From: a bacterium | Lineage (GTDB): Bacteria > UBA8248 > JACPRG01 > G963555815 | DNA length: 64,000 nt | NCBI GenBank assembly: GCA_965218795.1 | Contig: OZ244653.1 | Coordinates: 512,001 to 576,000 of the forward strand | Direction of reading: 5' to 3' | Part shown: positions 23,990 through 45,720 of the stretch, piece after piece | How positions within the stretch are numbered: the first letter of the stretch is position 1 | Layout: each line of letters begins with the position of its first letter | Translations under genes and position numbers: made by a program | Notes under the pieces: model-generated | What the model was told of the DNA's origin: nothing | What the model saw: the letters and a program-made list of their open reading frames with translations, nothing else | Database searches by the model: none

Positions 23990-24618
23990 GGCAGCCTCCA
24001 GCGCGCCGGCTCCAGGACCGTGCGCACCCAGTGGGCCTCGCGAAAGACCCCGTCGGCGTCCACGAAGGGGGCGATCCATATCCGCGCGATCCTCTCCTTT
24101 GTGCGCAGGGCCTTCACGCCCGGGCCGTCACCGGCCGCATCCGTGGTTCCTTGGGTTGGCGGAACGGGTTTTGGTTCGGCAGGGGCTGCGGCAGTTGGAC
24201 GCTCCGCGTCCGTGGACTCCTCTGTGACGGCGTCTCGGTCCCATAAGGTCCGGAACCATGTCGCGAGCCAGGCCATGGGATCGCAGCCTTTGGCGCAGGG
24301 GGTGTCGTCACTCGGCCTTGTCGCCGGGGCGCCCGACCCTTGGGCACCGTCGGTATTTGCCTGGTAAAGGGGCGTCCGGGTGGCAAGGCCCTGGGTTTTC
24401 CCCGGGGTCCGGACGGCCGGATCGGTGTCCGCCACGCTCGTGCAGGCCGCGCCCTGGGCCACGGGGCACTGCCAGGAGTCGCCCACGTGGGTCGCCGCGC
24501 AGCCGCCCAGGACCAGGGCCGCCGCGAGGATCGCTGGGACCACAGGCAGGAAGGACAAGACCGTCCGGCTTTTTCCAATTCGTTGATGGATCCTCGATTG
24601 GGTGGATTGGGTTCTCAT
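23986..24618 (-). CDS. traV: Lipoprotein TraV
   Basis: Lipobox LGGC, WQCPVAQGAACTSV, RIWIAPFVDADG. Confidence 0.9.
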   Translation of the reverse strand: MRTQSTQSRIHQRIGKSRTVLSFLPVVPAILAAALVLGGCAATHVGDSWQCPVAQGAACTSVADTDPAVRTPGKTQGLATRTPLYQANTDGAQGSGAPATRPSDDTPCAKGCDPMAWLATWFRTLWDRDAVTEESTDAERPTAAAPAEPKPVPPTQGTTDAAGDGPGVKALRTKERIARIWIAPFVDADGVFREAHWVRTVLEPARWRLP

Positions 24619-25868
24619 TGGCCTCCTCTTTTCTTGTCCTTGCGCCCGTCGAGCCAGGCGCCCTCGATGAACACCACGGTCACCCGCGTGCCCGTCTGGA
24701 GCTGAATCACCGGCTGGTACTGCTCGGCCCGGCGGATCAGGTAGTCGGCCACCCGGCGGCCCGCCGATCCGGCGCCCGCGCCGATCCCGGCCTGGCCGAG
24801 CGTGGCCAGGCTCGACAGGTTCACGGTCCCGTCCGAGCCGGTCGCCCTGGCCGGGGCCTGCAGCAGGTTGGCGGCGGTCTCGCCCACGCCCGAGATGAGG
24901 CCCGCGAGGAACGCCTTCTCGACCAGGGCCCCCTCGCGGCTCACCACCGGGCCCCGGACGCCCGCCTTGCCGCTCCCGGCCACGAAGCCCGCGACCTGGG
25001 TCTCGGTCACGGTCCCCCGGGCGGGCCCGGCGCAGGTCAGGGTCCTCAGACGGACGTAGACCTTCTCGGAGGAGAGGTCCCCGTAGCCGGCGCCGGTCAG
25101 CGTGCATCCCGCCACGTCCGCCTCGAGCGCCTGGCCTCCCTCGGCCGCGCTCCGGGCAGGACCGGTCAGCCGCAGCAGCACCGGGCGCGGCTCGCCCTGG
25201 GAGGCGACGCCCGCCGAGGCGTCCACGCCGGCCAGCACCACGGCGTCCGCATAAGAACCCGCCGGCAGCCAGGACCTGACGGCACGGGGTCCCGGAGAGG
25301 CGGCGCCCTTGACCGCCGGAACCGCATCGCCTTCGAACACCTGGATCATGGGCACGGCCGGTGCGCCCCCCGGGGCCTCGGAGGCTCTCTTACCGGGAGG
25401 GGGTTGGCTCGAACCCGCGCGGGTGAAATCATTCGCGCCCGCGGCGGTCCGGTCCTCGGGACCCGACCCAGCCGTCCGGGCTTCGAGGCGACCGCGCAAC
25501 TCCTCGATGGCCGCGGCCTGTTGGTCGATCACCGCCCGGCCGTCCTCGGCGCCGCGCGCGAGGCGCTCTCTGAGCTTTGCGTTCTCCTGATCGGTCCGGC
25601 GGCTTCGCGTCTCCATGTCCCGGATCCGCGTCTCCAGTTCGCCGATCCGCGCCTCCGAGCGGCGCACCCAGCTCACCTCCGCCGTATCCGGACCGGCCAG
25701 CTTTGCCCGGATCCCGCTTGACGGCGGCGAGCCTCCACCGCCGCCCGCCGAGAACCACACCGCGAATACGATCAGCAACGCCGCGGCCACGCCCGAGAAG
25801 AGCAGAACCTGTTGCTGACGAGTACGCCGGGCCTCCGGATCCATGGGAGCCTTGTCCGGGCCGCTCAT
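24615..25868 (-). CDS. traB: TraB (VirB10-like)
   Basis: TM plus coiled coil; LPAGSY..GVDA, GDLSSEKVYVR, RAEQYQPVI. Confidence 0.93.
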   Translation of the reverse strand: MSGPDKAPMDPEARRTRQQQVLLFSGVAAALLIVFAVWFSAGGGGGSPPSSGIRAKLAGPDTAEVSWVRRSEARIGELETRIRDMETRSRRTDQENAKLRERLARGAEDGRAVIDQQAAAIEELRGRLEARTAGSGPEDRTAAGANDFTRAGSSQPPPGKRASEAPGGAPAVPMIQVFEGDAVPAVKGAASPGPRAVRSWLPAGSYADAVVLAGVDASAGVASQGEPRPVLLRLTGPARSAAEGGQALEADVAGCTLTGAGYGDLSSEKVYVRLRTLTCAGPARGTVTETQVAGFVAGSGKAGVRGPVVSREGALVEKAFLAGLISGVGETAANLLQAPARATGSDGTVNLSSLATLGQAGIGAGAGSAGRRVADYLIRRAEQYQPVIQLQTGTRVTVVFIEGAWLDGRKDKKRGGQ

Positions 25869-26644
25869 TGCGCAGCCTCCATGGAACGGGTCCGGAAGGC
25901 GTCATGCACGGTCACCGCGAGCCGTCCGCCCGATGGGCCGGTCCCCGGCCCCGCCAGCCAGATCGCGGCCGCACCCGGCCCGAGACGGCCGGCCAGGGCC
26001 TCGGCTCCCAAATCGGAGCCTGCCTCCAGCACGCGCGCAATGAACCGGGGCCCCCGCCAGATCTCGATGATGGAAAGGTTTTCCTTGTCGTGTGTTCCCG
26101 AAGGCGTCTCGACCGCGTAGCCCGGAAGGGTCTCGCGCCGCGCCACCGCCCGGACCAGCGCCACCAGCGCGCCCACGCGTTCATCTCCCGGCCCTTGGAC
26201 GTCCGTTTTGGTCAGTGCGGCCGCGTTGCGGATCAGGATTTGCGCCGAGCCGCGCGAGGCCACCGTCAACGCCAGCCGGTAGGTGAAGCCCGCGGCCGTC
26301 CCGATGAAGAGCGTCACCGGCTCCCGGGGGGCTCTGGTGACGCTTGCGGGCCGCAGGTAGATGTCGCCGCGCGCCGCGTCGTGCTCGACATGGAAACCGT
26401 CCGGTCCGCGGATCACCCGTGCGATCCGGTCGCCCACCAGTGCGATGCGGCTCACCGCCCGGTCCGAGACCTCCGCTTTCAGCTCCGCGTGGTCCACGGC
26501 ATCCAGGATCTGCATCGCCGACGCCGGCATGCAGTGAAGAAGCGTTCCCAAAAGCAGCGCCGGGATGGACACATGGGTAAAGGTCGCCCCGGCCCCGGCT
26601 CGGCCTCGGCCTTTTGCACCCCTGGTTCTCTTCCCTTGCCTCAT
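25865..26644 (-). CDS. traK: Secretin-like TraK
   Basis: Signal peptide, SRIALVGDRI, GDIYLRP, PVTLFIGT..GFTYRL; between traE and traB. Confidence 0.85.
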   Translation of the reverse strand: MRQGKRTRGAKGRGRAGAGATFTHVSIPALLLGTLLHCMPASAMQILDAVDHAELKAEVSDRAVSRIALVGDRIARVIRGPDGFHVEHDAARGDIYLRPASVTRAPREPVTLFIGTAAGFTYRLALTVASRGSAQILIRNAAALTKTDVQGPGDERVGALVALVRAVARRETLPGYAVETPSGTHDKENLSIIEIWRGPRFIARVLEAGSDLGAEALAGRLGPGAAAIWLAGPGTGPSGGRLAVTVHDAFRTRSMEAAQ

Positions 26645-26646
26645 TC

Positions 26647-27198
26647 TCAGTCCTCCAGTTCTTCGAAACGCACCAGGCCGATCCGGCCGGCATCCACGCG
26701 GAAGGCCAGCCGGTACCGCTTGCGCTCGCGGGAGACCGGCTCGCGCCCGAGCCACGTGGCGAGCTCTCCGGTCACCAGGACCGTCAACCCCTTGGGGTCC
26801 GCCTCGACGCGGTCGGGATAGAAGGCGGTCGCCAGGTCCCGCCGCGCCATGCGCCCGGCCTCGGCCGCGACCCAGGCCCCGATCGCGCCCCGGGCCGAGG
26901 CGTGACTCAGCCGCGTTGCCGCCTCCCGCACGTGCTCCGCGTTCTCCGGCGTCAGCGTCAGCAGCGTCACCGCCACGGTCCGCCCAATGTCCTCCAGGTA
27001 TCGAAGCCCGGCCCGGCTGCTCCCGACCTCCCAGGCGGGCCCCGTGACCGCCGGGATCAGCACGGCCATGCGATCCACCGAGGCCAGACCGACGCTCAGG
27101 CCCAGATTGGCCAGGAGCGAGAGGCCCAGGAGCCCGGCCAGGGCCGCACGCCCGTCGCGCACCCGCCGCCGCTCCGCTTCCATGACGTCCCGTCTCAT
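26647..27198 (-). CDS. traE: TraE
   Basis: TM segment, LTLTPEN, TAFYP, GELATWLG; after traL. Confidence 0.88.
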   Translation of the reverse strand: MRRDVMEAERRRVRDGRAALAGLLGLSLLANLGLSVGLASVDRMAVLIPAVTGPAWEVGSSRAGLRYLEDIGRTVAVTLLTLTPENAEHVREAATRLSHASARGAIGAWVAAEAGRMARRDLATAFYPDRVEADPKGLTVLVTGELATWLGREPVSRERKRYRLAFRVDAGRIGLVRFEELED

Positions 27199-27208
27199 CG
27201 CGGTCTCC

Positions 27209-27502
27209 TCATCCGATGAAGCGGCGCACGTGGCTCGGAGGCGCGCCCTTGAGGCCCAGGGTGAAGGCGGGGAGGAACCAGTAGAGCGCGCAGATCGCCA
27301 CATCCGCCCCGCCGCCCCGCTTGGCCCGGCGCAGCAAGGCCCAGGCCCCGAGCCCGGCCACCAGCCCGGTCACGAAGGCGTTGGCGGCCAGCCCCAGGAC
27401 CGCAGGCCCCAGAAGCGCCGCCGCCTCGTCCAGGGTCCAGAACAGCCAGCGCTCGGGATCGTCCAGACGCGAGGGGATCGCGTGCCGGGCCGGGTCGCTC
27501 AT
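27209..27502 (-). CDS. traL: TraL
   Basis: IPSRLDDPERWLFWTLDE, LYWFLP, PPSHVRRFIG. Confidence 0.92.
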   Translation of the reverse strand: MSDPARHAIPSRLDDPERWLFWTLDEAAALLGPAVLGLAANAFVTGLVAGLGAWALLRRAKRGGGADVAICALYWFLPAFTLGLKGAPPSHVRRFIG

Positions 27503-27514
27503 CGTCCGCCCCCC

Positions 27515-27811
27515 TCATACGATCGCCGTGCCGACAAGGCCGGTGACGATGCCCGTGCCGGCCCCGGCTGCGATGCCCACGCCGACCGCGCCCATCAGCT
27601 GCGTGGCGTTGAAGCGCAGGACCGAGCCGACCAGCGCGGCGCCCACCGCCAGCGCGGCCGCGAGCTGCCCGCCCGTGCCCGAGACGATGTCGGTCACCGT
27701 GCCGAGCGGACTCGAGAAGGTCGTGTCCGTCGAGGCCCAGGCCGCCTCCAGGCTCCCCAGCGTCAACACGAGCGCCGGGACCATCCGTTTTGTCAGAACA
27801 AGCGTTCTCAT
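27515..27811 (-). CDS. traA: Conjugative pilin (TraA-like)
   Basis: 98 aa with signal peptide and two Gly/Ala-rich hydrophobic helices; first tra gene; ATGA overlap upstream. Confidence 0.75.
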   Translation of the reverse strand: MRTLVLTKRMVPALVLTLGSLEAAWASTDTTFSSPLGTVTDIVSGTGGQLAAALAVGAALVGSVLRFNATQLMGAVGVGIAAGAGTGIVTGLVGTAIV

Positions 27812-28578
27812 CGCGCCTCCCTCCTTCGTCCGGCCTCGCCGTCGTCCGAGGTCGAGACCCGCCGCCGCGCCGAGGCCCAGGTCTCCAGGTCGGCGAGCAG
27901 GTAGCGCACCCGGGACCCGAACCGGTGGAACACCGGTCCCTCGCCGCTCACCCGGTAGCGGTCCAGCGTGCGCGGCGACAGGCCCAGCCATGCGGCCGCC
28001 TCCCGCGTGCTCAGGTAATGCCTGCCGTTGTTGTCGTTCATGCGCGTGTCTCCTTTTCGTTCGAGGTCGGCCCCGGACCCGGCAGGCGGGACCGGAGCGG
28101 TGGATGGACCGGGCGGGATCGCCCCGGCGGATGGGTTCGCTGCGTCCGTCACCCCGGCCCGGATGGCCCGGGCCTCTTCCGCGCTCGCATGGGCCGCCAT
28201 CCAGGCGTGCACCCGATCGACCGTGGTCAGCCGCGGCGAGACCCCCCGGCGCAGCCTCCCCATGAAGGACGGATTGCCGACAGCCTCCAGGCCCAATTCC
28301 GAGCTCTTGGTCCCGGTCACGGCCAGGAACGTTTCGACCTCGCGCCGGAACACGGGACCCAGGGGCGGATGCCCCATGAAGGCCAGGACCCGGTCCGCCG
28401 TGGCCAGCCGCACCGAACGCCCCCGCATCTGGGAGCCCACGAAACCCGGATCTCCCAATGCCTCCATTCCGAAGCGCCGGGCGCTCATGTGGTGGCGTAC
28501 GCGCCAGGCCGCGACGGTCCGGCGCAGGCGCTCGTCCAAAGGCATGTCAAAGGGGGTGCCGGGCGTTGTCATGTGCAT
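27808..28578 (-). CDS. Tandem Cro-like HTH domains fused to an excisionase/AlpA-like HTH (copy 1)
   Basis: Internal repeat (ALGDPGFV..RGRSVRLATADRV / AVGNPSFM..RRGVSPRLTTVDRV); C-terminal YLSTREAAAWLGLSPRTLDRYR..GPVF. Confidence 0.75.
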   Translation of the reverse strand: MHMTTPGTPFDMPLDERLRRTVAAWRVRHHMSARRFGMEALGDPGFVGSQMRGRSVRLATADRVLAFMGHPPLGPVFRREVETFLAVTGTKSSELGLEAVGNPSFMGRLRRGVSPRLTTVDRVHAWMAAHASAEEARAIRAGVTDAANPSAGAIPPGPSTAPVPPAGSGADLERKGDTRMNDNNGRHYLSTREAAAWLGLSPRTLDRYRVSGEGPVFHRFGSRVRYLLADLETWASARRRVSTSDDGEAGRRREAR

Positions 28579-28601
28579 GAAAATAAGGGGAACATCCGCG
28601 C

Positions 28602-28629
28602 TTGACAATAGGTATCAGTAGTGTATAAC
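28602..28629 (+). promoter_or_regulatory. Putative sigma70 promoter of the repressor overlapping TAGGT/ACCTA inverted motifs (candidate operator)
   Basis: TTGACA-N16-TATAAC in the divergent intergenic region. Confidence 0.5.
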
Positions 28630-28720
28630 CTACATTTAGAACCTATGCTGCCCATGTCTGCGGTAGGCTGCGCAGCAATGCGGTAAAAAAACCGGGGAGA
28701 CAGCAGGTGGAAGGGAAAGG

Positions 28721-29464
28721 ATGAGTTCAGAGAGAAAGACGGATCCGAGAGAGGCGGTCAGGCGGGACCCGGTCCGGCTCAGGCTGAGAGAACTGCTCCG
28801 GCGGAACGACCTCACTCTCGCCGCCGCGTCGCTGGCCATCGGTCGTAACAAGACCTATCTGCAGCAGTACGTGGACCGCGGGGTGCCCGCGGTCCTCGGC
28901 TATCGCGACAGCGAGGCCCTGGCCGACCTGCTCGGCTGCGGTCCCGGGCAGCTGCGACACGAGACCGTGCCCAAACGCAGGCCCATGAAGCGCAGACGGC
29001 CCCGGCCGCCGGCCGGGCTTCCCGGCGCCCCGGTGGCGGCCATCCCGGAGATCGCGGTGGAGGCCGGGGCCGGGGCGGGAGCGCTTGCCGAGGAGTTCGT
29101 CTCCGAGACGGCGCGCTGGCACTGGCCGGAGAACATGCTCCGCTACGAGGGCGGCACGGCGCCCGAGAACGTGCGCATCCTCAGGGTGCGGGGCAACTCG
29201 ATGCAGCCGGAGATGCGCGAGGGCGACCGGATCGTGGTGGACGTCTCGCGCCGTTTGCCGTCAACGGGGGAGACGTTCGTGCTGTGGGACGGCAACGGGC
29301 TGGTGGTCAAGCAGGTCGAGGCGGTGCAAAGCCATGGGGCGGGCGAGGACAAACCGCCCCGGCTCAGGCTGATCTCCGCCAACCCGGACTACGCCCCCTA
29401 CTCATGCCTCGCCCAGGACGTCCACGTCCTCGGCAAGGTGTTGTGGGTGGTAAGAAGGGTGTGA
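28721..29464 (+). CDS. cI/LexA-like repressor with S24 peptidase domain
   Basis: N-terminal HTH (LAAASLAIGRNKTYLQQY), AG sites, VRGNSMQP serine, VVK lysine, LISANPDY, GKVLW. Confidence 0.9.
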   Translation: MSSERKTDPREAVRRDPVRLRLRELLRRNDLTLAAASLAIGRNKTYLQQYVDRGVPAVLGYRDSEALADLLGCGPGQLRHETVPKRRPMKRRRPRPPAGLPGAPVAAIPEIAVEAGAGAGALAEEFVSETARWHWPENMLRYEGGTAPENVRILRVRGNSMQPEMREGDRIVVDVSRRLPSTGETFVLWDGNGLVVKQVEAVQSHGAGEDKPPRLRLISANPDYAPYSCLAQDVHVLGKVLWVVRRV

Positions 29465-29653
29465 GCGCATGGGTCCGGGAATCAAGGGAGGCGTGGACCG
29501 GGACGGTCGAACCCTTGCACATGCTTCCGGGTGGTCATACGGATCGAACCCGTCACCGCCTTGACCCGCATACAGGGAACCGGTCCATGATGGAAGCGCA
29601 CTGGCGTTCCGATCCACGATCGCCTATATTTCTTCCAGAATGGAGGAAGCATA

Positions 29654-30277
29654 ATGGCGACGAGCATTGTGTCCCAGACCCTGTCGGCGAACGAGGCGGC
29701 CTGTGTGACCGGCGTTCCCCTGAAACAGGTCCACCGCATCATCGACGCTGGCCTGTTGGGCAGCGCCGCCACAAACCACAAGGGCTCCCGTGTCGTCCTT
29801 CGCGACGGCTTGGTGGGCCTGAAGCTCGCCCACGAGACGACGGACACCCTCACCCTCGATGGACGCCGCCGGCTCGTGCGCTATCTCCTCGACAATCCGG
29901 AGGCCCGGGCGGCCCGTGAGAGCCACGTTTCCGTGGACGTACGGCTCATGAAGGGCGAAGTCCGGCGAGGGCTTTCCACGCTGGCAAGGGCGCGGAAGAT
30001 GATCGCGGCCGACAAGGCCGTACTCTCCGGCGCCGCGTGCATTAAGGGAACCCGCATACCCGCTCACGATATCGCCGAAATGCTCGCCAACGGCGACGGC
30101 GTTCACGCAATCCGCGACGCCTACCCGGCGCTCACTGGTGCACAGATCGAAGCCGCGGTCCTCTATGCCCGGGCCTACCCGCGCCGTGGCCGTCCCCGTG
30201 GCGAGCCCTTCTGGCGCAACCGAAAGCCGGTCATCTCGAGCGAGGTCGCCTTCCACGAGCTGCCTCCGACCCGGTGA
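29654..30277 (+). CDS. DUF433-domain antitoxin
   Basis: GGAGG RBS; LSGAACIKGTRIP...YPALTGAQIEAA. Confidence 0.85.
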   Translation: MATSIVSQTLSANEAACVTGVPLKQVHRIIDAGLLGSAATNHKGSRVVLRDGLVGLKLAHETTDTLTLDGRRRLVRYLLDNPEARAARESHVSVDVRLMKGEVRRGLSTLARARKMIAADKAVLSGAACIKGTRIPAHDIAEMLANGDGVHAIRDAYPALTGAQIEAAVLYARAYPRRGRPRGEPFWRNRKPVISSEVAFHELPPTR

Positions 30278-30663
30278 AGTTTCTGATCGACGAATGTCTG
30301 AGCCCCACGCTCGCGACCATCGCCCGAAAACAAGGGTTCCCGCAATCGACGCACGTGAGCTGGCTCGGGTTGAGGTCCAGGAAGGACTGGCTCCTCGTCC
30401 GGCGCGCGATCCGGGACGGGTATGTGCTCGTGACGAACGACACGGCGGATTTTACGTCGCTGATGGAGCGGGAGCACCGCCATCCCGGTCTGGTCTGCAT
30501 GAACGTGGCGCATGGCCTCATGAGCCTCGACGTGCAAACGAGCTTGTTCGAGCATGCCTTGGTTCAATTGGCGGATATCGGCCTTGCCGGCCAGGTTCTT
30601 GAGATCACGCTGACTGCCGACCGGGTTGTCCGGGTGGACAGATATGTGTCGAGAGCCGGATGA
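30274..30663 (+). CDS. DUF5615 PIN-like toxin
   Basis: MKFLIDECLS, VLVTNDTADF, HPGLV; GTGA overlap with DUF433 gene. Confidence 0.85.
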   Translation: MKFLIDECLSPTLATIARKQGFPQSTHVSWLGLRSRKDWLLVRRAIRDGYVLVTNDTADFTSLMEREHRHPGLVCMNVAHGLMSLDVQTSLFEHALVQLADIGLAGQVLEITLTADRVVRVDRYVSRAG

Positions 30664-30734
30664 CCGTCCTGCGCGCGCTTCCCTGACAACGCCGTGCGGG
30701 ACAGGGCGGCGGTTGCTCATGTTGCTCCACGATC

Positions 30735-30854: not shown

Positions 30855-31236
30855 CTCGGACAACGACCGGGTGCTGATCGGCTATTCATCTCTGTTCGAC
30901 GATAGCGGTCTTGTACGTACGGAAGTGATGGTGGAGTTCGCCGCGCTTGCGACCGGCGAGCCCCATGAAGTCCGACCGGTGACATGCGATGCGGCGCGGT
31001 TCCTGCCGGATCTCGCGTTTCCGACGGCCCACCCGACGGTCATGCTCGCCCAGCGCACCTTCTGGGAGAAAGCCACGGCCGCGCATGTTTTCTGCCGCCA
31101 GCAGCGGCCCCGGGGTGAACGCCTTTCTCGGCATTGGCACGACTTGGCGCGCCTGGACGATGCAGGCTTCGCGGTAACGGCGTTGGCCGACCGCGCTCTG
31201 GCGCGCGTTGTTGCTCGCCACAAGGCGGAGTTCTAA
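30855..31236 (+). pseudogene. AbiEii-family nucleotidyltransferase toxin fragment
   Basis: VEF...TGEP, RTFWEKATAAH, SRHWHDLARL; both ends missing. Confidence 0.75.
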
Positions 31237-31362
31237 CAAATCCGCTTTCATTTTGATTGCGAACTACACAACGTGAGTTCCGGGCAAAAGCAAGATAATT
31301 TGCATAATCCAATAATATCAATACGATATTAGGTTTTCACAGTCGATGAAAACAGATCGATA
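31224..31362 (+). repeat. AT-rich ~135 bp dispersed element, copy A
   Basis: Aligns by eye with 45355-45494 and the reverse complement of 39251-39388. Confidence 0.75.
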
Positions 31363-31385
31363 CACCTACCCGAACAAAAGTTTCC

Positions 31386-32156
31386 TCATCGCGTCTCCCT
31401 CCCTCCGGTTCCTCCGTCGTCCGACGTCGAAACCCGCCGACGCGCCGAAGCCCAAGCCTCGAGGGCGGCGAGCAGGTAGTGCACCCGGGAGCCGAACCGG
31501 TGGAACACCGGCCCCTCACCGCTCACGCGGTAGCGGTCCAGCGTCCTCGGCGAGAGGCCCAGCCATGCCGCCGCCTCTGGTGTGCTGAGGTAATTGCTGC
31601 CGTCCTCGTTCATGCGCATATCTCCTTCTCGTCCGAGGTCGGCCCCGGACCCGGCAGGCGGGACCGGAGCGGCGTGTGAGCCGCTCGTCATCGTCCCGGC
31701 GAAAGGGTTCATGAGTTCCTCCACCCCGGCGCGGATGGCCCGGGCCTCTTCCGCGCTGGCCTGGGCCGCCATCCAGGCGCGCACCCGATCGACCGTGGTC
31801 AGCCGCGGCGAGACTCCCCGGCGCAGCCTTCCCACGAAGGACGGATTGCCGGCAGCCTCCAGGCCCAATACCGAGAGCTTGGTCCCGGTCACGGCCAGGA
31901 ACGCCTCGACCTCGCGCCGAAACACAGGGCCCAGGGGCGGATGCCCCATGAAGACCAGGACCCGGTCCGCCGTCGCCAGCCGCACCAAGCGCCCCCTCGT
32001 CTGCGAGGCCACGAAACCCGGGTCCCCGAGCGCCTCCACACCGAAGCGCCTGGCGCTCATGCCATGGCGTACGCGCCAGGCCGCAACACTTCGTCGTAGG
32101 CGCTCGTCCAGAGCCATACCAGTGTGGTAGTCGAGCGTCGTCATGTGCATGAACAT
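31386..32156 (-). CDS. Cro-Cro-Xis-like protein (copy 2, paralogue of 27808-28578)
   Basis: Colinear and highly similar to copy 1 in DNA and protein. Confidence 0.75.
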   Translation of the reverse strand: MFMHMTTLDYHTGMALDERLRRSVAAWRVRHGMSARRFGVEALGDPGFVASQTRGRLVRLATADRVLVFMGHPPLGPVFRREVEAFLAVTGTKLSVLGLEAAGNPSFVGRLRRGVSPRLTTVDRVRAWMAAQASAEEARAIRAGVEELMNPFAGTMTSGSHAAPVPPAGSGADLGREGDMRMNEDGSNYLSTPEAAAWLGLSPRTLDRYRVSGEGPVFHRFGSRVHYLLAALEAWASARRRVSTSDDGGTGGRETR

Positions 32157-33150: not shown

Positions 33151-33471
33151 GAAAGAGTGCTCTCTTCGACACCCAGCTAGGAGCGCCGCCAACTCGCGCG
33201 CATCGAGCGAAGTGCCCTGTGCATGCGGCAGCGGCCATGCGCTATTGTGGCCGACTGCCAAAAGTGTCCCCTTTCTTATCCGACCACGAGCGCGTGGTTC
33301 TGAATGCATCTTCGAGTACCACCACGTCCTCGTTGAACATGATCCGGAAGAAACTCTTAGGCCTCTCGGTGCAATATGTCATGAAGAGATACCTCAAAAA
33401 CCTGAAATGACGGCCTCGGCCGTTGCGACACGAAACCGTTTTCAGGCAGGCATAGAGCCAGAGCTTGAAGA

Positions 33472-34530
33472 CTAGAAACTGTATCTCAACGAAAGGACGA
33501 CCTTGGTTCCTTTGGATGCGATTAGGCTCACGCCCCGGAGATTCACCCTCGCGTCTTCATAGTTGAGGCCGAAATTCGCGGACAATCCCCGCGCCAGATC
33601 GTATTGGACACCCAGGGCGGCGGAAGTTTTCTCCTCTCCTTCGACCCGGCCGTAGTGGCCTTCGATGGAGAGGCTCACGACGCCGATTTTGATGTGAACG
33701 CCCGATGAGACGTACCATTGCTCGAGGTCCAGGCCGGGCGATGAGAGGGTTTCATAGCACACGCCGAGGTCGAACAAGGCGCTCCCGTAGATGAATTCGC
33801 CCACGCCGCTGACGGCTCTGGTGTCGAACCGCCTCGACCCGTCGGCAGAGGTGAATCCGGCCTCGGTATATCGTCCGGTCAGACGATAGTCCTTATCGCC
33901 GATCGGACGTTGATACATCGCACCAATATCGAAGTTCCCGTCCTCATCCACCACCGCACTCAGGACCCAGGGACCAAAACGGCCCAGATAGCCCCCGCTC
34001 CAGCCATTGAGCGAGCCGAATACGTCGTCGTAGGCCAGGGAGGCTGCTCCCGCCCCGCGCCTACGCCCGGTCTGGCCGCGAACGACCTCCGAAACATTGC
34101 CGCTCACCACCGCGCCCCAGACGCCCCCGATCGAGAGCGCGACGTCGTCCTCGTAATCGTCATCCACCCTGGAGGCGAAACCCGAGTCGGGGTTGTCTTG
34201 CGGGTCGCTGGCGTATCGGCCTGAATAGGTCAGCCTGACACGCCAGCGGTTGGCCAATTGCGTCTGGGCACCGACCTGAAAGCTGCCGTCAAGGCTCTCG
34301 TCCGTGTCGTCGCTTTCCGGACGAAAGGTCCATGCTCCGTCTACCATGCCTCTCAAGACGAGTGTTACGTCGCCGAATTCGGTGGCGAGAGGGGCTTCGA
34401 GCAGCGACATGTCGTCGTAATTGAGAAAGATTTCCTGCGCCCCGGCCGGCGCCGGTGCCCCGATGGCGCAGATGAAAAGCACCGCCGCCCAGAAAAGGCT
34501 AAACCTCGGAGTCGCATTTTGCGTCGCCAT
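33472..34530 (-). CDS. Porin-like outer-membrane beta-barrel protein
   Basis: Signal peptide, alternating amphipathic strands, LGVQYDLARGLS, C-terminal LSLRYSF. Confidence 0.75.
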   Translation of the reverse strand: MATQNATPRFSLFWAAVLFICAIGAPAPAGAQEIFLNYDDMSLLEAPLATEFGDVTLVLRGMVDGAWTFRPESDDTDESLDGSFQVGAQTQLANRWRVRLTYSGRYASDPQDNPDSGFASRVDDDYEDDVALSIGGVWGAVVSGNVSEVVRGQTGRRRGAGAASLAYDDVFGSLNGWSGGYLGRFGPWVLSAVVDEDGNFDIGAMYQRPIGDKDYRLTGRYTEAGFTSADGSRRFDTRAVSGVGEFIYGSALFDLGVCYETLSSPGLDLEQWYVSSGVHIKIGVVSLSIEGHYGRVEGEEKTSAALGVQYDLARGLSANFGLNYEDARVNLRGVSLIASKGTKVVLSLRYSF

Positions 34531-34534
34531 GGTC

Positions 34535-35911
34535 TCAAGCCTTTTTCGGAAAAGTGGAGTGAAAGGCTTGGCGCGCGATGGCGCGACCGGCCGTCAATGC
34601 CTGTGTGTTATCGATTTCCCAATGAACGCCGCCGTAGATGCGGCTGAGCCCGTTTTCTTCCGCCATCTGGCGCAGGCTGCTCCAGCGCCTGATGACACCC
34701 CGAAGTTGCGGCCACAGCACCTCGTCGGGCGATCGACCCGAGAACGAAACGTCGTCGCGGCCATGGATCAGCGCGATCATCTCGGCAGCGGCGGCGGCGA
34801 ACGTGGAATGCCCCGAAGTGTAGGAGGGAAATTCTGGGGTCGGTATGTAGCTGCGCCAGTCGGCTTGCAGTTGCACGTACGGATCGGGGTTGGCGAATTT
34901 GGGCGCGCGGACGCGGATGGCGGTTTCCGGGCGGAGGATGTCGTGATGATACTTGCTATCCCACGCGCTGATGGAAGCGTCGCACTGCGTCATTCCGATC
35001 AGCGCGAAGGCGCGCGCGAGTTCAATGAAGCTCAGGCCGCGATCCTGGAGAATCTGCATGGCTATATAGATCATGTGCCCCGGTGGCGTGATACCCCAGG
35101 GGCCGTCCTCCCAGAAGAGCGCGATCTCCGACTCCGCAGCGGTTCGGATGGAGCTGTCCATCCCCCCGAGACGGCGGATGCGGTCGAATTCTTCGGCGAA
35201 TTCCGGACTTGCGGGATCGTAGAAACCGGAGGCGCGAAACTGCGAACCACTCCTCATCGTCCAGGGCTTGATTTGGCCATGCCCCGGAAACAGGCCGCGA
35301 TCGAAAGAGGCGAACGCCGGCCCCGGCGTCGCGCCGTAAAACGGACCGGTGGGCGCCCATCGCAACGAATCCGCGCGCCGCTTGTAACGGCCCAGATAAT
35401 AGTTCGCCTCGCTCGGTTCGGCGCCATCGTTTGTCCGTATCCCGAGCACCTTACGGGCGGCCGTGCGGCCCCATTGAACGCCGAGGGACTTCGCCTCGTT
35501 CCCGGGAAAGCGGCTCAAGAATCTGGCGCGCTCGAAGAGGGAGGGCTGCTGAAATGCTTCCGCCGCCGCGCTGGCGAAGGCCACGCCGTAGGCGACCTCG
35601 GGATCCGCGCCGCGCGGGCCGATGCCGATGCCGAAAGGTTCGTCATAAGTTTGGAGAATCCCGTTCGCGGCGAGAAATCCGGCGGCCATGGTCAGACTGT
35701 AATTGTATGCGGCCCGCGGAACGAGGATCCTCTGGTTCCGCACCTGTTGTAAGGCCGTATCCACCCAGTGGAAGACGGTGTTCTTGTTCTGGGGTTTTAG
35801 TATCTGGCTCGTATAGGAAGCCTTGTGTCCGTGGGGGCTGACGCACCCCGTCGCGAGGAGTGCGGCGGCGCCCGCCGCGTTCCTCAGAAACTGCCTTCTC
35901 GTGTAGGTCAT
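34535..35911 (-). CDS. Vanadium-dependent haloperoxidase-like / PAP2-superfamily Tat lipoprotein
   Basis: TRRQFL Tat motif, LATGC lipobox, K(X6)RP (KYHHDILRP), PSYTSGHS, SRIYGGVHW. Confidence 0.85.
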   Translation of the reverse strand: MTYTRRQFLRNAAGAAALLATGCVSPHGHKASYTSQILKPQNKNTVFHWVDTALQQVRNQRILVPRAAYNYSLTMAAGFLAANGILQTYDEPFGIGIGPRGADPEVAYGVAFASAAAEAFQQPSLFERARFLSRFPGNEAKSLGVQWGRTAARKVLGIRTNDGAEPSEANYYLGRYKRRADSLRWAPTGPFYGATPGPAFASFDRGLFPGHGQIKPWTMRSGSQFRASGFYDPASPEFAEEFDRIRRLGGMDSSIRTAAESEIALFWEDGPWGITPPGHMIYIAMQILQDRGLSFIELARAFALIGMTQCDASISAWDSKYHHDILRPETAIRVRAPKFANPDPYVQLQADWRSYIPTPEFPSYTSGHSTFAAAAAEMIALIHGRDDVSFSGRSPDEVLWPQLRGVIRRWSSLRQMAEENGLSRIYGGVHWEIDNTQALTAGRAIARQAFHSTFPKKA

Positions 35912-36091
35912 TGCTCGGGTCCTTTATATGAATACAATGAATGAACGGCTTTCCCGGCCTCGCTTATCGGCAAATATATTTTTTCTCCTTGACAGGCTCC
36001 TTATCAGCCCAAGGAAGCGAGCATCCCCAACTCGTGCAGCCCATTCCTGGGTCTGACCGCCAATCTGCCAGCAGAATTGGTGTGTAGCTCG

Positions 36092-36281
36092 CCGATAACT
36101 TCTACTTACGGGATGCGAAGAGTCTCATTGCGCCGCTGAGATACCGCCTTGAGCCGTATGTGTGCCGCAACCGTGCAGGAAAAGGTGCGAAACGAGGCAC
36201 GGAACCCCTCCCAGGTTTTTAGGCTTACGCTTGACATGGCCATGAAATGTGTTATAGAATCCGATAAGTAGAAGTTATCGG
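36092..36281. promoter_or_regulatory. Two inverted lox-like sites (36092-36112, 36260-36282) flanking a sigma70 promoter (36231-36260)
   Basis: CCGATAA-CTTCTAC-TTACGGG and TCCGATAA-GTAGAAG-TTATCGGA; TTGACA then TATAGA/TAGAAT at 16-18 bp spacing. Confidence 0.65.
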
Positions 36282-36467
36282 AATAGAGTAGAGCTATCGC
36301 TTTTTTTTACAATTTCCGTATACCAACGTGACATTTTCTTTGGGCGATTTCTTGTTACGGGCCTATTTACATGACGTTAAGGTAACAACCTCATGTAAAG
36401 AAAAGAGTGCTCAACTTATTCTTGCGCAACGGAATCGTCGGCGAAGTGACAAGGCATCGAGCAGAAA

Positions 36468-36674
36468 ATGAGCCTTGGAGAACTGCATGACAGGCTTGCA
36501 ATACTCAAAACATATTTCACTCGGGAGAAAAAACCCATCGCCCTCAAGCCTACGGATTTTCAACCCTCGAAAGCCGAAACGAAGAAGAAAGTTTGGATTC
36601 CGGCCACGTCAGAGAACATCGCGAAGGCAATGGTTCAGGACGTGAAGCTCAGATTCTCGTCCAGGACCGAATAG
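36468..36674 (+). CDS. Small hypothetical protein
   Basis: 68 aa ATG ORF between promoter and recombinase; no recognised function. Confidence 0.4.
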   Translation: MSLGELHDRLAILKTYFTREKKPIALKPTDFQPSKAETKKKVWIPATSENIAKAMVQDVKLRFSSRTE

Positions 36675-36717
36675 GGCGAATGTTACTTTGGTATGTGATT
36701 TCCCAATTTCTTGAGTC

Positions 36718-37713
36718 TTGGCCTCAACTCAGGCTGCGGAGTTCGCTATGACAATGGAGACAACACCATCCGGCCCGACACAAGATACCGCTGTAACGAC
36801 GACGCCAGCGCCGGTTGACGCTTCCGCCCCAGCTCGCCCAATGCGGGGGGCTGCGGACTTGGTGCGGGCGTCGATTGCCGAAAATACGCGCCGGGCGTAC
36901 GAGCGGGCGTTGCGACAGTTCGAACGTTCGGAGTACTCGGAGACGGACGCCGGGGTAGCGGCGTACCTCGGCAGGCTGTACGAACAGGGGCGCTCCGCGG
37001 CCTGTGCCGCTATGGTAGTTGCAGCGTTGCGTTTCCGGGCCAAGCTGCATGGTTGGCCGTCTCCAGTGGGCGCGGCGGCGCGGCGGGTGTTGGCCGGGTT
37101 CCGGCGTCTGGCCGCGGGGCGGGGCCGCGGCAAGGTGGTCGGGGTCCGCTGGGAGCAGGCGGACCGGGCGGCGGCAATGGCCGAACAGCCGGGGGAGCTG
37201 GCCGGGCTGCGGGACGCCGCGATTATGGCGGTAGCGAGTGACGCGCTGCTCAGGGTGTCGGAGGTCGCGGCTTTGGACGTGCCGGACGTGAATCTAGCGG
37301 AGCAAACGGTGTTGATCCGACGCAGTAAGACAGATCAGGAAGGCAAGGGCGTGGTGCAATACCTGGGGAAGCCGACAGCGGAGCGTATTCGGGTCTGGCT
37401 GCTGCACTCCGGTCTGACGGAAGGGGCATTATTCCGGCCCGTCAACAAATCGGGTCGAGTGCAGGACGGGCGCCTGACGGTCAGGAGCATCCGACGCATT
37501 ATCACCCAGTGGGCCAGGGCCGCCGGGGTGGACGGTCGGGTCAGCGGACACAGCCTGCGCGTAGGCAGTGCGCAGAGCCTGGCAACTGCCGGGGCCTCCC
37601 TGGTCGAGATGCAGATTGCCGGGCGCTGGCGGTCGCCGGCCATGCCAGGGCGTTACGCGCAAGGGCAACTGGCAAAACAAGGAGCCGTGGCAAGACTCCG
37701 GTATGGCTCATGA
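36718..37713 (+). CDS. Cre-like tyrosine recombinase (true start possibly ATG 36748)
   Basis: AENTRRAY, LLRVSEV (R), RRSKTDQEG (K), GHSLRVG (HxxR), GRW..M..RY (W, Y). Confidence 0.92.
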   Translation: MASTQAAEFAMTMETTPSGPTQDTAVTTTPAPVDASAPARPMRGAADLVRASIAENTRRAYERALRQFERSEYSETDAGVAAYLGRLYEQGRSAACAAMVVAALRFRAKLHGWPSPVGAAARRVLAGFRRLAAGRGRGKVVGVRWEQADRAAAMAEQPGELAGLRDAAIMAVASDALLRVSEVAALDVPDVNLAEQTVLIRRSKTDQEGKGVVQYLGKPTAERIRVWLLHSGLTEGALFRPVNKSGRVQDGRLTVRSIRRIITQWARAAGVDGRVSGHSLRVGSAQSLATAGASLVEMQIAGRWRSPAMPGRYAQGQLAKQGAVARLRYGS

Positions 37714-37950
37714 GTTCGACTTTGTACAATCCGCCTCGTCAAATCCGGGATGATCTGTTTTTTCGACGGTTCGTCGAGCACCACGGCCAGCCGTCCGTTC
37801 AATGAACCAAGAATCCATCGATTAAAGCGCGCTTTTCGGGTTTAAACCGAGAAGTGACCCTCCCCCTGGTTTAGGGCCAAGTGGGTTGAGAGTTTTCGGT
37901 TGTGATCATAGAGCGAAGCTGCCCGTGTTGCCGGGTAGGCGGCCGGTGCT

Positions 37951-38264
37951 TTGTACCAACGCCACCTCTGGCGTTCGGAAGGCTTCCACGGCGAGGCGAA
38001 GCTCTGGCACGGCCTCGGGCGCGCGGTCCGGCGCGGTCTCGACAACATGAAGGTCCAGGCCTACATGACGGCCGCGGCGATCAATCTCAAGCGGCTTGGG
38101 GCCGCCCTTGTTGCCATCCTATTGGCCAATTGGACGGCCCGCGTTGCCGGACAAGAGCCGCTGCATGTCCATCACGCCCACACACCCCGAACAGACTTGC
38201 GGGCGGCCGCCGCCACGTGATCCTGCATGCGCCCGGTCTCGAAACCGGCTTTTTCAACAGCCCC
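37951..38264 (+). mobile_element. IS1182/IS5-like transposase 3' remnant with right end
   Basis: EGFHGEAKLWHGLGRAVRRGL..AAAINLKRL; terminal TTTTTCAACAGCCCC. Confidence 0.7.
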
Positions 38265-38289
38265 ACCATCGGCAGGCTCTGCGACCACG

Positions 38290-38607
38290 CTAGGATGCGG
38301 TGGAAATGGCCCCGACCTCGTTGTCGACGATGACGGGCGAGTCGAAGTATTCGATACTCGCTTCGACTCCCAGACGCTCGCGCAGTCCGGCCCGCCAAGC
38401 CTCGTCGTACAGCCGCTCGGCATCGGCGCGCGATTCGAAGAGATACACGCCTCCGCCGGTCCGCACGTCCTCGGACAACAGATAGTATTTGCGCACCAGG
38501 CCGGGAACGTCCCGGTAGAGCGGCGCGGATTTCTCATAAGCCGCGGCCATGTCCTCCTGGGTCTTGCCCTCTGGAAGCGTGAAGCGAACGATTGCAGTGA
38601 CAGCCAT
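38290..38607 (-). CDS. YdhR-like putative monooxygenase
   Basis: VPGLVRKYYL, GGGVYLFES; GAGGA RBS. Confidence 0.8.
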   Translation of the reverse strand: MAVTAIVRFTLPEGKTQEDMAAAYEKSAPLYRDVPGLVRKYYLLSEDVRTGGGVYLFESRADAERLYDEAWRAGLRERLGVEASIEYFDSPVIVDNEVGAISTAS

Positions 38608-38724
38608 GGAAACGTCCTCCTCTGCGCGATGAATTGGCTCCGAACCATAGCACGGAACAAGGGCCGGGTGAGCGCGGATGAGCGGCGGGGTTTGTTGTCC
38701 GTCCCCCCCTTCAGGCTCGCCGGA

Positions 38725-39126
38725 TCAGGTGAGGGGATACATACGCTTGACGCTCAGCCGTGTCACGAGTCGTTTCTCATCTTTCATCGCTTGTAGATAT
38801 TCATCGAGATCATCCGGGTCTTTTCCGGTGATGCGCCGGTACAGGTCGAGGTTTTTCAGACCATCGGGGTCTTCGACGAGCGTCGCATCTCCTTCCACGC
38901 AAAGATAGGGGTGGAACCTGTCCTGCGGCAGCACGCAAAGCGTGGCCCTCGGGTCTCGCTTGAGGTTTCTGGCTTTCACGCGATCCCAGGTCATGGAGGT
39001 TTCCACGACCCCGTCCTGGTAATCGAACATGATCGGCGTGGGGTGCGGCCTGCGGTCTTCCAACAATGTGCTCAGAACGCCATGGCGCTGCTCGTTCAGG
39101 AAGGCCAGGGCCTCATCGTGCGTCAT
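38725..39126 (-). CDS. PPOX-class (pyridoxamine-phosphate-oxidase-like, possibly F420-dependent) oxidoreductase
   Basis: GVLSTL..RPH.TP, KARNLKRDPRATLCV; AGGAG RBS. Confidence 0.85.
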   Translation of the reverse strand: MTHDEALAFLNEQRHGVLSTLLEDRRPHPTPIMFDYQDGVVETSMTWDRVKARNLKRDPRATLCVLPQDRFHPYLCVEGDATLVEDPDGLKNLDLYRRITGKDPDDLDEYLQAMKDEKRLVTRLSVKRMYPLT

Positions 39127-39250
39127 GGGGTTTCTCCTTGTGAATCCGCAACAATCGCGATATCGACAAAGTTCTCGAACGCGGAGGAAAAGGCCTCGGG
39201 CGCCGGCGGCATCGAGCACGGTCGATGCACGGCCCTTTCAACCCAGATAC

Positions 39251-39388
39251 ATCGAGCCGTTTTCATAAGCCGTAAGATCCTCATATCATATTGATATGAT
39301 TATAAATATACATTTTCTCCAATTCCGTTCGGAACCCGCCTGTTACAGCATGTAATCAAAACGAAAGCGGATTCATTAAAACTCCCGC
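39251..39388 (-). repeat. AT-rich ~135 bp dispersed element, copy B (inverted)
   Basis: Reverse complement TAATGAATCCGCTTTCGTTTTGATT...TATCAATATGATA...ATGAAAACGGCTCGAT. Confidence 0.7.
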
Positions 39389-39683
39389 GTATCCCGGCGG
39401 GTCCGTGTCGGACCAGGGACCATCCCGGCTCCCCTTCCACCCGCACAGCGCAACCGTGCCTCCGGCCTATTCCACCATGCGCCTGAGCCCGCGCAGCGGC
39501 TGAATCCTGACCGCCCGCGAGACCGGGCGGAGGACGCGGGCGATGAGGAGCCCGAACACGGCGTAGCCCTTCGCGGCTCGCTCCGCTGGTAGGGAGACGG
39601 CGTCGCGCCGCTTCTCCAGGGCGCGCTTCCTCCTTCGAATGGCGGGAGGTCGGCTTTCCGAGCCGAAGGAGCATGTTGACGCA

Positions 39684-41178: not shown

Positions 41179-42417
41179 ATGCGCCAACCGACCAAACCGA
41201 AGCGGCTCTATATCGATTTCGATGGTTTTTTCGCGTCCTGCGAGGAGCAGGCGGACCCCGGCCTGCACGGCCGCCCCGTTGGAGTCATACCGTTTGCGGG
41301 GGCGCGCAACAGTTGCGTGATCGCTGCAAACGCAGCGGCCAAGAGGTTCGGCGTCACGACCGGGACTTCAATCGCCGAGGCGCGCCGGTTGTGCCCCCGG
41401 ATAGCTCTCCCGCCGCAGCGGCCGGATCTGTACGTCCGGATCCACCACCGGATCGTGGCTGCGGTGCTCTCCGTGTTGCCGCTTGATGTCGTTTGCTCGA
41501 TCGACGAGTGCGCCGCCGTTCTGGGGAATCGGGACTGCCCTGAAGAGATCGCGGGAAGGATCAAGAGCCGCGTGCGGGCAGCAGTCGGGGAACGCATCAC
41601 CTGCTCCATCGGCTGTGCGCCCAACAGGTGGCTCGCCAAGATCGCCGCGGGCCTGGAAAAGCCGGACGGTCTGACGGTGCTGCTTCCCGGCGACCTGCCG
41701 GGTCCTCTGCTCCACCTCGGGCTGGAGGCGTTGCCCGGGGTCGGCAGGCGCATACGCGTACGTTTGAAGCGGAGTGGGATAACGACGATCGAGGACATTT
41801 GGAACAGTGAGCCCGGGCGGCTGAGCTCAGTCTGGGGCAATGTGACCGGCGCGCGCTTTTGGTACGCGCTCCACGGCTACGCCGTGGAACCGCCGGTGAC
41901 GCAACGCGGCTCGATCGGCCACGGCCGGGTCCTGCCTCCAGGGGAGCGCAACGCGCAGTCCGCCCGGCCGATGGCTAGGCAACTGGTGGTGAAGGCGGCC
42001 CGGCGCCTGCGCCGGGAGGGGTTCCTCGCCCGGAGGCTCACCCTGTCGGCCGAGTGTCTCGATGCGCCCTCCTGGACGGCCTCGACGGTCGTCGCAAGAG
42101 CGAACGATGATCTGACCTGCCTCGACGCCATCTCGACGCTCTGGGCCGCACTCACCACGGCGCGGAGCCGGGCCACCCTGTTCCGGATCGCCGTATCGTT
42201 CGACCGCTTCATCCCGTCGGATGAAGCGCAGCTCGAACTGCCTCTTGAAAAGCCGGACGACAGGCGCCGGCTGACAAGGCTGAGCGCCGCCGTCGATTCG
42301 ATCAATGGCCGCTATGCGCGCACCGTCGTCGGCTACGGCGGGTGTGCTCCTCCGGGCGGCTACGCGGGGGCCAAGATTGCGTACGGCCGCGTTCCTCAAC
42401 TGGAGGATTTCCAGTAG
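41179..42417 (+). CDS. Y-family DNA polymerase (DinB/UmuC-like)
   Basis: YIDFDGFFASCE, SIDE, SIG..NRWLAKIA..KPDGL, LPGVG. Confidence 0.92.
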   Translation: MRQPTKPKRLYIDFDGFFASCEEQADPGLHGRPVGVIPFAGARNSCVIAANAAAKRFGVTTGTSIAEARRLCPRIALPPQRPDLYVRIHHRIVAAVLSVLPLDVVCSIDECAAVLGNRDCPEEIAGRIKSRVRAAVGERITCSIGCAPNRWLAKIAAGLEKPDGLTVLLPGDLPGPLLHLGLEALPGVGRRIRVRLKRSGITTIEDIWNSEPGRLSSVWGNVTGARFWYALHGYAVEPPVTQRGSIGHGRVLPPGERNAQSARPMARQLVVKAARRLRREGFLARRLTLSAECLDAPSWTASTVVARANDDLTCLDAISTLWAALTTARSRATLFRIAVSFDRFIPSDEAQLELPLEKPDDRRRLTRLSAAVDSINGRYARTVVGYGGCAPPGGYAGAKIAYGRVPQLEDFQ

Positions 42418-45215: not shown

Positions 45216-45354
45216 TAAAAGACAGGAGCCGGTGGTTCGTGGATAGGCGTTACCGGATTCCGGAGGGTCAACCATAAGCGAGTTGTTGCGGGGTCGGACT
45301 TTTTTATATATTAGGGTAAAGATTCAACGGTTCGCCAGGGACTCGACTGGATGC

Positions 45355-45494
45355 GCGGAACTTGTAACGAATCCGCTTTCATTTTGATTACAGCCTATAC
45401 AAAGCGAGTTCCGGACAAGAGCGAGAATAATGTGTATTTACCAATAATATCAATATGTTAGTAGGGTCTCACGGCTGATGAGAATAGTTCGATA
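45355..45494 (+). repeat. AT-rich ~135 bp dispersed element, copy C, with consensus IHF site
   Basis: TATCAATATGTTA (45448-45460) fits WATCAANNNNTTR; aligns with copies A and B. Confidence 0.75.
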
Positions 45495-45720
45495 TAGTGA
45501 ATTGTCAAGAAAAGAGTATGAGAAAAATCATCTTGGAAACGATTCGCTCGATCTTGCGCCCTTCAGATCCCCGCTGAGATTAACGCGGATGTTGAGGCTG
45601 TGAAGGAGCAGGACCATTTTCGTGGAGTTTGGCAAAGAAGTTCGGGGAAGTTGTCAAAAATGAGTCCTTGCGTCACCAAGCGCCCTCGATCTACCGGGCG
45701 TCGGTTTATGGAGGGGGAAA

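Follow-up and report, generated by a model that had tools for sequence, protein, structure and literature searches.

The stretch of bacterial DNA analysed here, 64,000 nucleotides long and called the window below, contains a short promoter-bearing segment bounded by two oppositely oriented sites, a putative switch with a haloperoxidase-porin gene pair on one side and a recombinase gene on the other. The elements of this arrangement are, in order along the window:

33472-34530, minus strand: porin-like protein of 352 aa with an N-terminal signal-like sequence, co-directional with the haloperoxidase gene
34535-35911, minus strand: vanadium-dependent haloperoxidase homologue of 458 aa (PAP2/VCPO; PDB 4cit_A, E 2.6e-20)
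36092-36281: putative invertible segment including both sites, 190 bp
36092-36112: left, promoter-distal site, with outer arm CCGATAA (36092-36098), spacer CTTCTAC (36099-36105) and inner arm TTACGGG (36106-36112)
36231-36260, plus strand: sigma-70-like promoter, TTGACA (36231-36236), 18 nt, TAGAAT (36255-36260); motif match 11/12
36261-36281: right, promoter-proximal site, CCGATAA (36261-36267), spacer GTAGAAG (36268-36274), TTATCGG (36275-36281), with perfectly palindromic arms
36301-36308, plus strand: run of eight T, 20 nt past the right site, with a weak hairpin, where relatives have a strong terminator
36468-36674, plus strand: 68-aa ORF between the switch and the recombinase gene
36748-37713, plus strand: Cre-like tyrosine recombinase of 321 aa, with ATG at 36748 and GGAG upstream; Pfam PF00589

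The haloperoxidase homologue has a twin-arginine-type N-terminus, and its gene, which reads away from the switch, stands in the cargo position; it is presumed to be the gene under control of the switch. The second protein of the pair, the porin of the first-pass annotation, gave no family or structure-by-sequence match. The recombinase had already been described as Cre-like, and this assignment holds. Indeed, besides the Pfam domain, Cre is its closest solved-structure match (E 2.1e-12, residues 71-317), and R169, K194, H268, R271, W294 and Y303 correspond in the alignment to the catalytic set R-K-H-R-W-Y of Cre. With the NCBIfam model NF007371 (FimB/FimE-type, "tyrosine-type DNA invertase"), the protein reaches 20.1 bits where the cut-off is 222, and it also remains below the cut-off of the curated Xer models (58.4 bits versus 220 for XerA, 50.9 versus 335 for XerC). 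As judged by these curated models, it is neither a FimB/FimE-type invertase nor an XerC/XerD/XerA resolvase. A low-GC stretch of about 466 nt separates the switch from the recombinase gene and holds the 68-aa ORF, which is not found at related switch loci and gave no family or structure-by-sequence match. A homologue of this ORF occurs elsewhere, in genome G021 (locus L006; 61% identity over 46 aa), and in each of the four source runs, contigs of higher depth from other organisms match a 35-nt piece of it (36612-36646).

The surroundings are rich in dispersed repeats. Positions 24001-30714 are 87-89% identical to an element of about 6.7 kb that is present in six copies in G004, a genome of the same family and another genus; this part of the window is probably a mobile element, and its genes include one of the HTH_17 type (27808-28608, minus strand) and one for an S24 peptidase (28721-29464). 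Three tandem recombinases proposed at 24258-27904 were rejected, as no Pfam matches were obtained. A dispersed repeat of about 170 nt occurs at 31227-31400 (plus strand), 39220-39430 (minus strand) and 45329-45496; G004 contains 20 or more copies of it, and in loci of the sister genus g7 it recurs 1-1.6 kb past the recombinase. Two inverted copies of this repeat bracket an 8.2-kb segment comprising an HTH_17 gene, the porin and haloperoxidase genes, the switch, the recombinase gene and a PNPOx-like gene. A circular permutation or a composite transposon bounded by these repeats was considered; in relatives, the repeat is placed differently relative to the HTH_17 gene. The HTH_17 genes of the window (31386-32156, minus strand, and the one cited above) share 63% protein identity with the HTH_17 gene that comes after the recombinase at the g7 switches; in the window they are situated on the opposite side of the cargo. 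A gene for a Y-family DNA polymerase (IMS domains, 41179-42417) completes the neighbourhood; such genes, like those for S24 peptidases, are common in mobile or SOS-linked regions.

The site pair and the promoter between the sites

The spacers of the two sites are exact reverse complements of each other (7/7). Taken as an inverted repeat, the pair spans 23 nt with 21/23 matched and its arms 144 nt apart; it ranks first within 35000-39000. With up to three mismatches allowed, the 21-nt site pattern occurs at only these two places in the window, where none is expected (100 shuffles), and the 17-nt core, with up to two mismatches, is found at only these two sites in the whole genome (5,174,045 bases). 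The first-pass claim of two oppositely oriented sites with matching spacers is thus borne out by the sequence itself, by shuffling and by genome-wide uniqueness. The accompanying reservation, that one arm of the left site is imperfect, loses its force: the inner arm TTACGGG recurs identically in 8 of the 44 related copies collected from g7 (see below) and, as this comparison indicates, is a trait of the family and not a sign of decay.

That the pair arose by chance, or that it represents the terminal repeats of a miniature transposon that happen to flank a promoter, is in our opinion highly improbable. The short arms (7-9 nt) and the abundance of other dispersed repeats in the region could suggest such an origin, whereas the absence of expected matches in shuffled sequence speaks against it, as does the rarity of comparable repeats: only 25 inverted-repeat pairs with at least 21/23 matched and 50-400 nt between the arms exist in 5.17 Mb, and many of those besides the window pair are REP-like palindromes. 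The transposon variant is countered further by the behaviour of the outer arms in relatives, as discussed in the following section.

Further pairs with at least 21/23 matched and 50-400 nt apart lie on contig C1 of the window's genome at 4241598, 324101, 4884327, 3890543, 1748990, 4594430, 5009318 and 5139516. They include a five-member family with common AATGATACGCTTGACGAGCC arms and a perfect 23-nt pair with its members 149 nt apart, and may be other switches or small transposons. An Rfam search (E up to 0.1) of five loci, including that of the window, gave no match.

The TTGACA promoter that the first-pass annotation placed between the sites, aimed at the recombinase, is confirmed at the level of the motif, though it can alternatively be read as an extended -10 promoter (TGT-TATAGA). 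No other strong promoter-like site occurs in 35800-36900, and this one currently points to the recombinase side; no promoter-like site was found on the minus strand of this interval, and so none faces the haloperoxidase gene. A set of 25 related copies that was compared shares the -35 box and the position of the promoter. Inversion of the segment would bring the promoter to about 36113-36142 on the minus strand, approximately 195 nt upstream of the haloperoxidase ATG, and no terminator-like site occurs between this predicted location and the ATG. On the opposite side, the hairpin at the T run has a predicted energy of -5.2 to -9.7 kcal/mol, no better than that of shuffled sequences, as compared with -21.1 kcal/mol (z -3.7) for the terminator of the g7 locus L007. 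Since no convincing terminator follows the right site, transcription from the switch promoter may continue into the recombinase gene in the window.

Related switches in the sister genus g7

A DNA search revealed that positions 36180-36282, covering the promoter and the right site, are 70-74% identical to a repeated element in g7, a genus of the same class, and that the outer edge of the right site marks the exact limit of this homology. One g7 copy, L009, aligns along the entire window segment (68% over 36087-36284). In a class-wide search with a g7 copy as the query, the switch was detected in 12 of 23 g7 genomes and in the window's genome (G000); the 13 remaining genera covered by the search gave no copy. 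Two genomes, G020 and G036, each yielded at least 15 scored copies. The dispersed family has at least 44 members in these and other g7 genomes (L004-L030 and L123-L142), and 44 copies were collected and oriented by their promoter.

In each of the 44 copies, both the distal and the proximal site consist of a 7-nt arm, a 6-nt spacer and a second 7-nt arm. In 43 of the 44, the distal and proximal spacers are exactly reverse-complementary, the exception being off by one base, although the copies carry 19 different spacers. Eight spacer types occur in G020 alone. When distal and proximal spacers of different copies were paired at random, they differed at 2.2 positions on average, and not one of 10000 shuffles came down to the observed 0.02, a result that is not to be read as a probability since the copies are related. 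Even so, such matching calls for a large number of coordinated changes in the two sites. The arms, on the other hand, vary freely between the two sites of a copy, and the distal inner arm is a perfect TTATCGG in only 13/44. In tyrosine recombination, the overlap regions of the two partner sites must be identical, and the combination of identical spacers with free arms is, at the sequence level, the pattern expected of tyrosine-recombinase core sites.

The segment is found in both orientations. When judged against homologous flanks, 39 copies have a common orientation and five (L028, L021, L126, L014 and L142) are precisely inverted; for instance, L007 and L028 differ in orientation within flanks that are 93% identical. 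In all five inverted copies, each flank has retained its typical outer arm, CCGCTAA or CCGTTAA at one end and TTATCGG at the opposite end, and the inner arms have moved with the segment. This distribution places the crossover inside the spacer. It also excludes independent insertions of a small transposon, whose terminal repeats would not be left behind in this way.

The genes around the g7 copies are arranged in a consistent manner. Cargo genes are always situated opposite the recombinase and point outward from the switch. An outward-reading lipoprotein gene, with a conserved signal (…LAGCGGGGG…) and a variable body, begins 220-550 nt outside the switch in 29/44 copies. Of these 29 copies, 27 have the common orientation, with the gene located promoter-distally, and the other two are inverted and have it promoter-proximally, so that most copies are OFF and a few ON in the assemblies. 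These variable lipoproteins also have a conserved C-terminal motif; they gave no family or structure-by-sequence match, and their C-terminus may resemble TbpB-type barrels. A terminator-like hairpin with a T run is present 45-60 nt past the switch on the recombinase side in 31 of the 44 copies, compared with none on the cargo side. As for the recombinase itself, a full-length gene stands beside the switch in 19/44 copies and a fragment in 9/44; the fetched flanks of 1.5-2.5 kb of the other 16 (one on a short contig) contain none.

Two consequences follow for the control of the recombinase. The 16 switches with no recombinase nearby imply that many are flipped in trans, and since the promoter in its common orientation fires into a terminator, expression of the recombinase appears to be independent of it. 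The first-pass proposal that the promoter drives the recombinase and then silences it by inversion, a self-limiting loop, is therefore not supported by the family.

The window recombinase is 74-77% identical in protein sequence to its g7 homologues. Its closest relatives occur in genomes labelled Candidatus Binatia or in unclassified bacterial MAGs, and distant ones (45-63%) carry the labels Latescibacteria, Poribacteria, Gemmatimonadota, Longimicrobiales, Thermodesulfobacteriota and Gammaproteobacteria. A search for inverted repeats (16 nt or longer) gave matches upstream of the recombinase in 22/80 relatives from genomes, versus 6/80 downstream control regions. In Latescibacteria-labelled genomes, where the recombinase is 54% identical, sites of the form TTTCCGATAA-N6-TTATCGGAAA flank a segment of 255-263 nt located between the recombinase gene and that of a SusC-like TonB-dependent receptor; at the three loci concerned, the spacers match within a locus and differ between loci. 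The Poribacteria, Gemmatimonadota and proteobacterial loci have mostly no upstream inverted repeat in this crude search. L043 and L145, which carry two of the recombinases most closely related to that of the window (77%), lack paired sites nearby: L043 keeps a promoter and one site, and L145 has neither site. L145 is also the single close relative obtained in a metagenome scan. The recombinase is thus not always accompanied by a switch.

These comparisons also bear on another explanation, raised as a caveat in the first-pass annotation, in which the sites serve autoregulation of the recombinase or mobility of the module (integration, excision or resolution) and not phase variation of the operon. 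A perfect palindrome that partly coincides with the probable start of transcription, the right site is operator-like. Mobility is suggested by the recombinase, 72-82% identical across families and present in about ten full-length copies per genome in G020 and G036, and HTH_17 (excisionase-type) genes accompany it. However, oppositely oriented sites yield inversion and not excision, and precise inversion is what 5/44 copies display. Furthermore, an operator would not need matching spacers within a pair, and the geometry of cargo and terminator fits an ON/OFF promoter. Taken together, we regard this explanation as improbable, and an invertible promoter as the better account of the family.

Cargo, orientation and state of the window copy

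The association of the switch with a haloperoxidase gene recurs once. At locus L233 of another genome, G033 (C1:1523000-1534000), the 5' part of a haloperoxidase gene, a switch, a terminator-like hairpin and a recombinase gene follow one another in the order and orientation seen in the window, and the two spacers, of 6 nt, match (TTATCA and TGATAA). The pairing of haloperoxidase and switch is thus not unique to the window. The haloperoxidase homology at this locus stops at residue 253, which indicates that the locus may be decaying; a full-length haloperoxidase copy without a switch is also present elsewhere in G033. The haloperoxidase-porin block itself (33469-35965) has approximately 81% DNA identity to six g7 loci, all devoid of the switch, and is absent from six searched genomes of the family to which the window's genome belongs. 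The haloperoxidase-porin operon as the target of the switch is supported by the conserved geometry and by this one recurrence.

Contigs assembled from four runs of one study, at a depth of about 6-10, were inspected over 35400-37200. They contain the reference orientation only, with neither joints nor an inverted form; in three of these runs, contigs extend across both sites. The contig of run X3 breaks at 36144-36187, within the segment and not at the sites. Since contigs drop minority forms, a single orientation argues only against a near-even mixture.

These observations could also mean that the window copy is a fixed relic, a member of a genuine switch family that no longer flips, in which the promoter serves the small ORF and the recombinase while the operon uses its own unrecognised promoter. 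The single orientation in the contigs would agree with this, as would the lack of a terminator between promoter and recombinase, the loss of paired sites near the recombinases of L043 and L145, and the six haloperoxidase-porin blocks without a switch. The 7-nt spacer is another peculiarity of the window, as all 45 other copies (44 from g7 and that of G033) have 6 nt. Yet this same feature can be turned around: the simplest explanation for an extra spacer nucleotide shared by both sites is that exchange between them has continued. Moreover, the spacers are still identical, the arms, promoter and catalytic residues are intact, and no promoter-like site faces the operon. We therefore consider a fixed relic unlikely, though of the alternatives it is the one to be taken most seriously.

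Collectively, these data make it fairly probable, in our estimation, that the 190-bp segment is a promoter inverton flipped by the adjacent Cre-like recombinase, that it is now OFF, and that its ON state would give phase-variable expression of the haloperoxidase-porin operon. In such a mechanism, the recombinase (36748-37713) would bind both oppositely oriented sites, and strand exchange within the identical 7-nt spacers would flip 36092-36281. In the present orientation, the promoter would be aimed away from the haloperoxidase-porin operon, corresponding to OFF, and after inversion transcription would start from about 195 nt upstream of the haloperoxidase ATG, corresponding to ON. The predicted outcome is phase-variable production of a secreted vanadium haloperoxidase together with an outer-membrane protein. 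The window recombinase is probably expressed independently of the switch; the window copy would continue to flip, and its ON state would drive the operon. The invertible promoter proposed in the first-pass annotation thus stands in part: relatives in both orientations, crossover in the spacer, cargo geometry and the recurrence in G033 all favour it, whereas the self-silencing of the recombinase is not supported. Judged from comparative sequence analysis, such a promoter is well supported for the family and plausible for the window copy.

If the switch is active, the halogenating enzyme and the outer-membrane protein would be made by only part of the population, which bears on the variation of surface and chemistry of such bacteria inside their host. 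Beyond the window, the g7 family, with its 44 copies, 19 spacer types and 43/44 matched pairs, represents a natural set of sites for understanding how sites are insulated from each other, and its spacer variants are possibly useful as orthogonal recombination sites. A broader idea, which we advance tentatively and hold to be possible but rather doubtful, is that the Cre-like invertase and the inverton of 190 bp constitute a self-contained phase-variation module. It would move horizontally among uncultured symbiont-type lineages of several phyla and would have been recruited to lipoprotein, SusC-like receptor and haloperoxidase-porin cargos. The differing spacers would then act as natural "heterospecific lox" variants, allowing shared recombinases to flip each switch without recombination between switches.

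Comparison with known inversion systems

Among pathogens and gut bacteria, inverting a promoter is a classic means of phase variation. In the fimS switch of Escherichia coli, a short promoter segment lies between inverted repeats, with the genes of the tyrosine recombinases FimB and FimE beside it and the regulated genes opposite. The window shows the same layout, a promoter segment between inverted repeats with the recombinase on one side and the cargo on the other, but it differs in having a Cre-like recombinase, a segment of 190 bp, arms of 7 nt and a spacer of 7 nt. The logic of the switch, that of a promoter inverton, is known; its presence in uncultured symbiont-type lineages is apparently not yet described, as full-text literature searches gave, among the papers listed, none that connects invertons or phase variation to sponge-symbiont lineages.

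The sites of Cre follow the loxP layout of 13 + 8 + 13. The arms of the window sites measure 7-9 nt around a spacer of 7 nt, and those of the relatives about 14 nt in three of the four half-sites around a spacer of 6 nt; judged by these lengths, the sites are not lox-like in dimensions. The recombinase likewise has low identity to Cre, and its role here would be chromosomal promoter inversion and not plasmid or phage maintenance. What is shared with Cre/loxP and other Cre-type recombinase systems (PMC10250229) is the principle of a pair of inverted arms enclosing an asymmetric spacer, with identity of the spacer required between partner sites.

The closest parallel for the g7 family is found in Mycoplasma penetrans, where, according to PMC2268961, each gene of the mpl (P35) lipoprotein family has one invertible promoter; the same paper describes promoter inversions by globally acting recombinases in Bacteroides. 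The g7 family resembles both systems, with dispersed lipoprotein genes that each possess their own invertible promoter and with an implied action in trans. It differs from them in phylum, in recombinase and in sites, and also in that the g7 spacers vary between copies (19 kinds among 44). The window departs one step further from the mpl family as described there, since its cargo is a haloperoxidase operon and not a member of a lipoprotein family.
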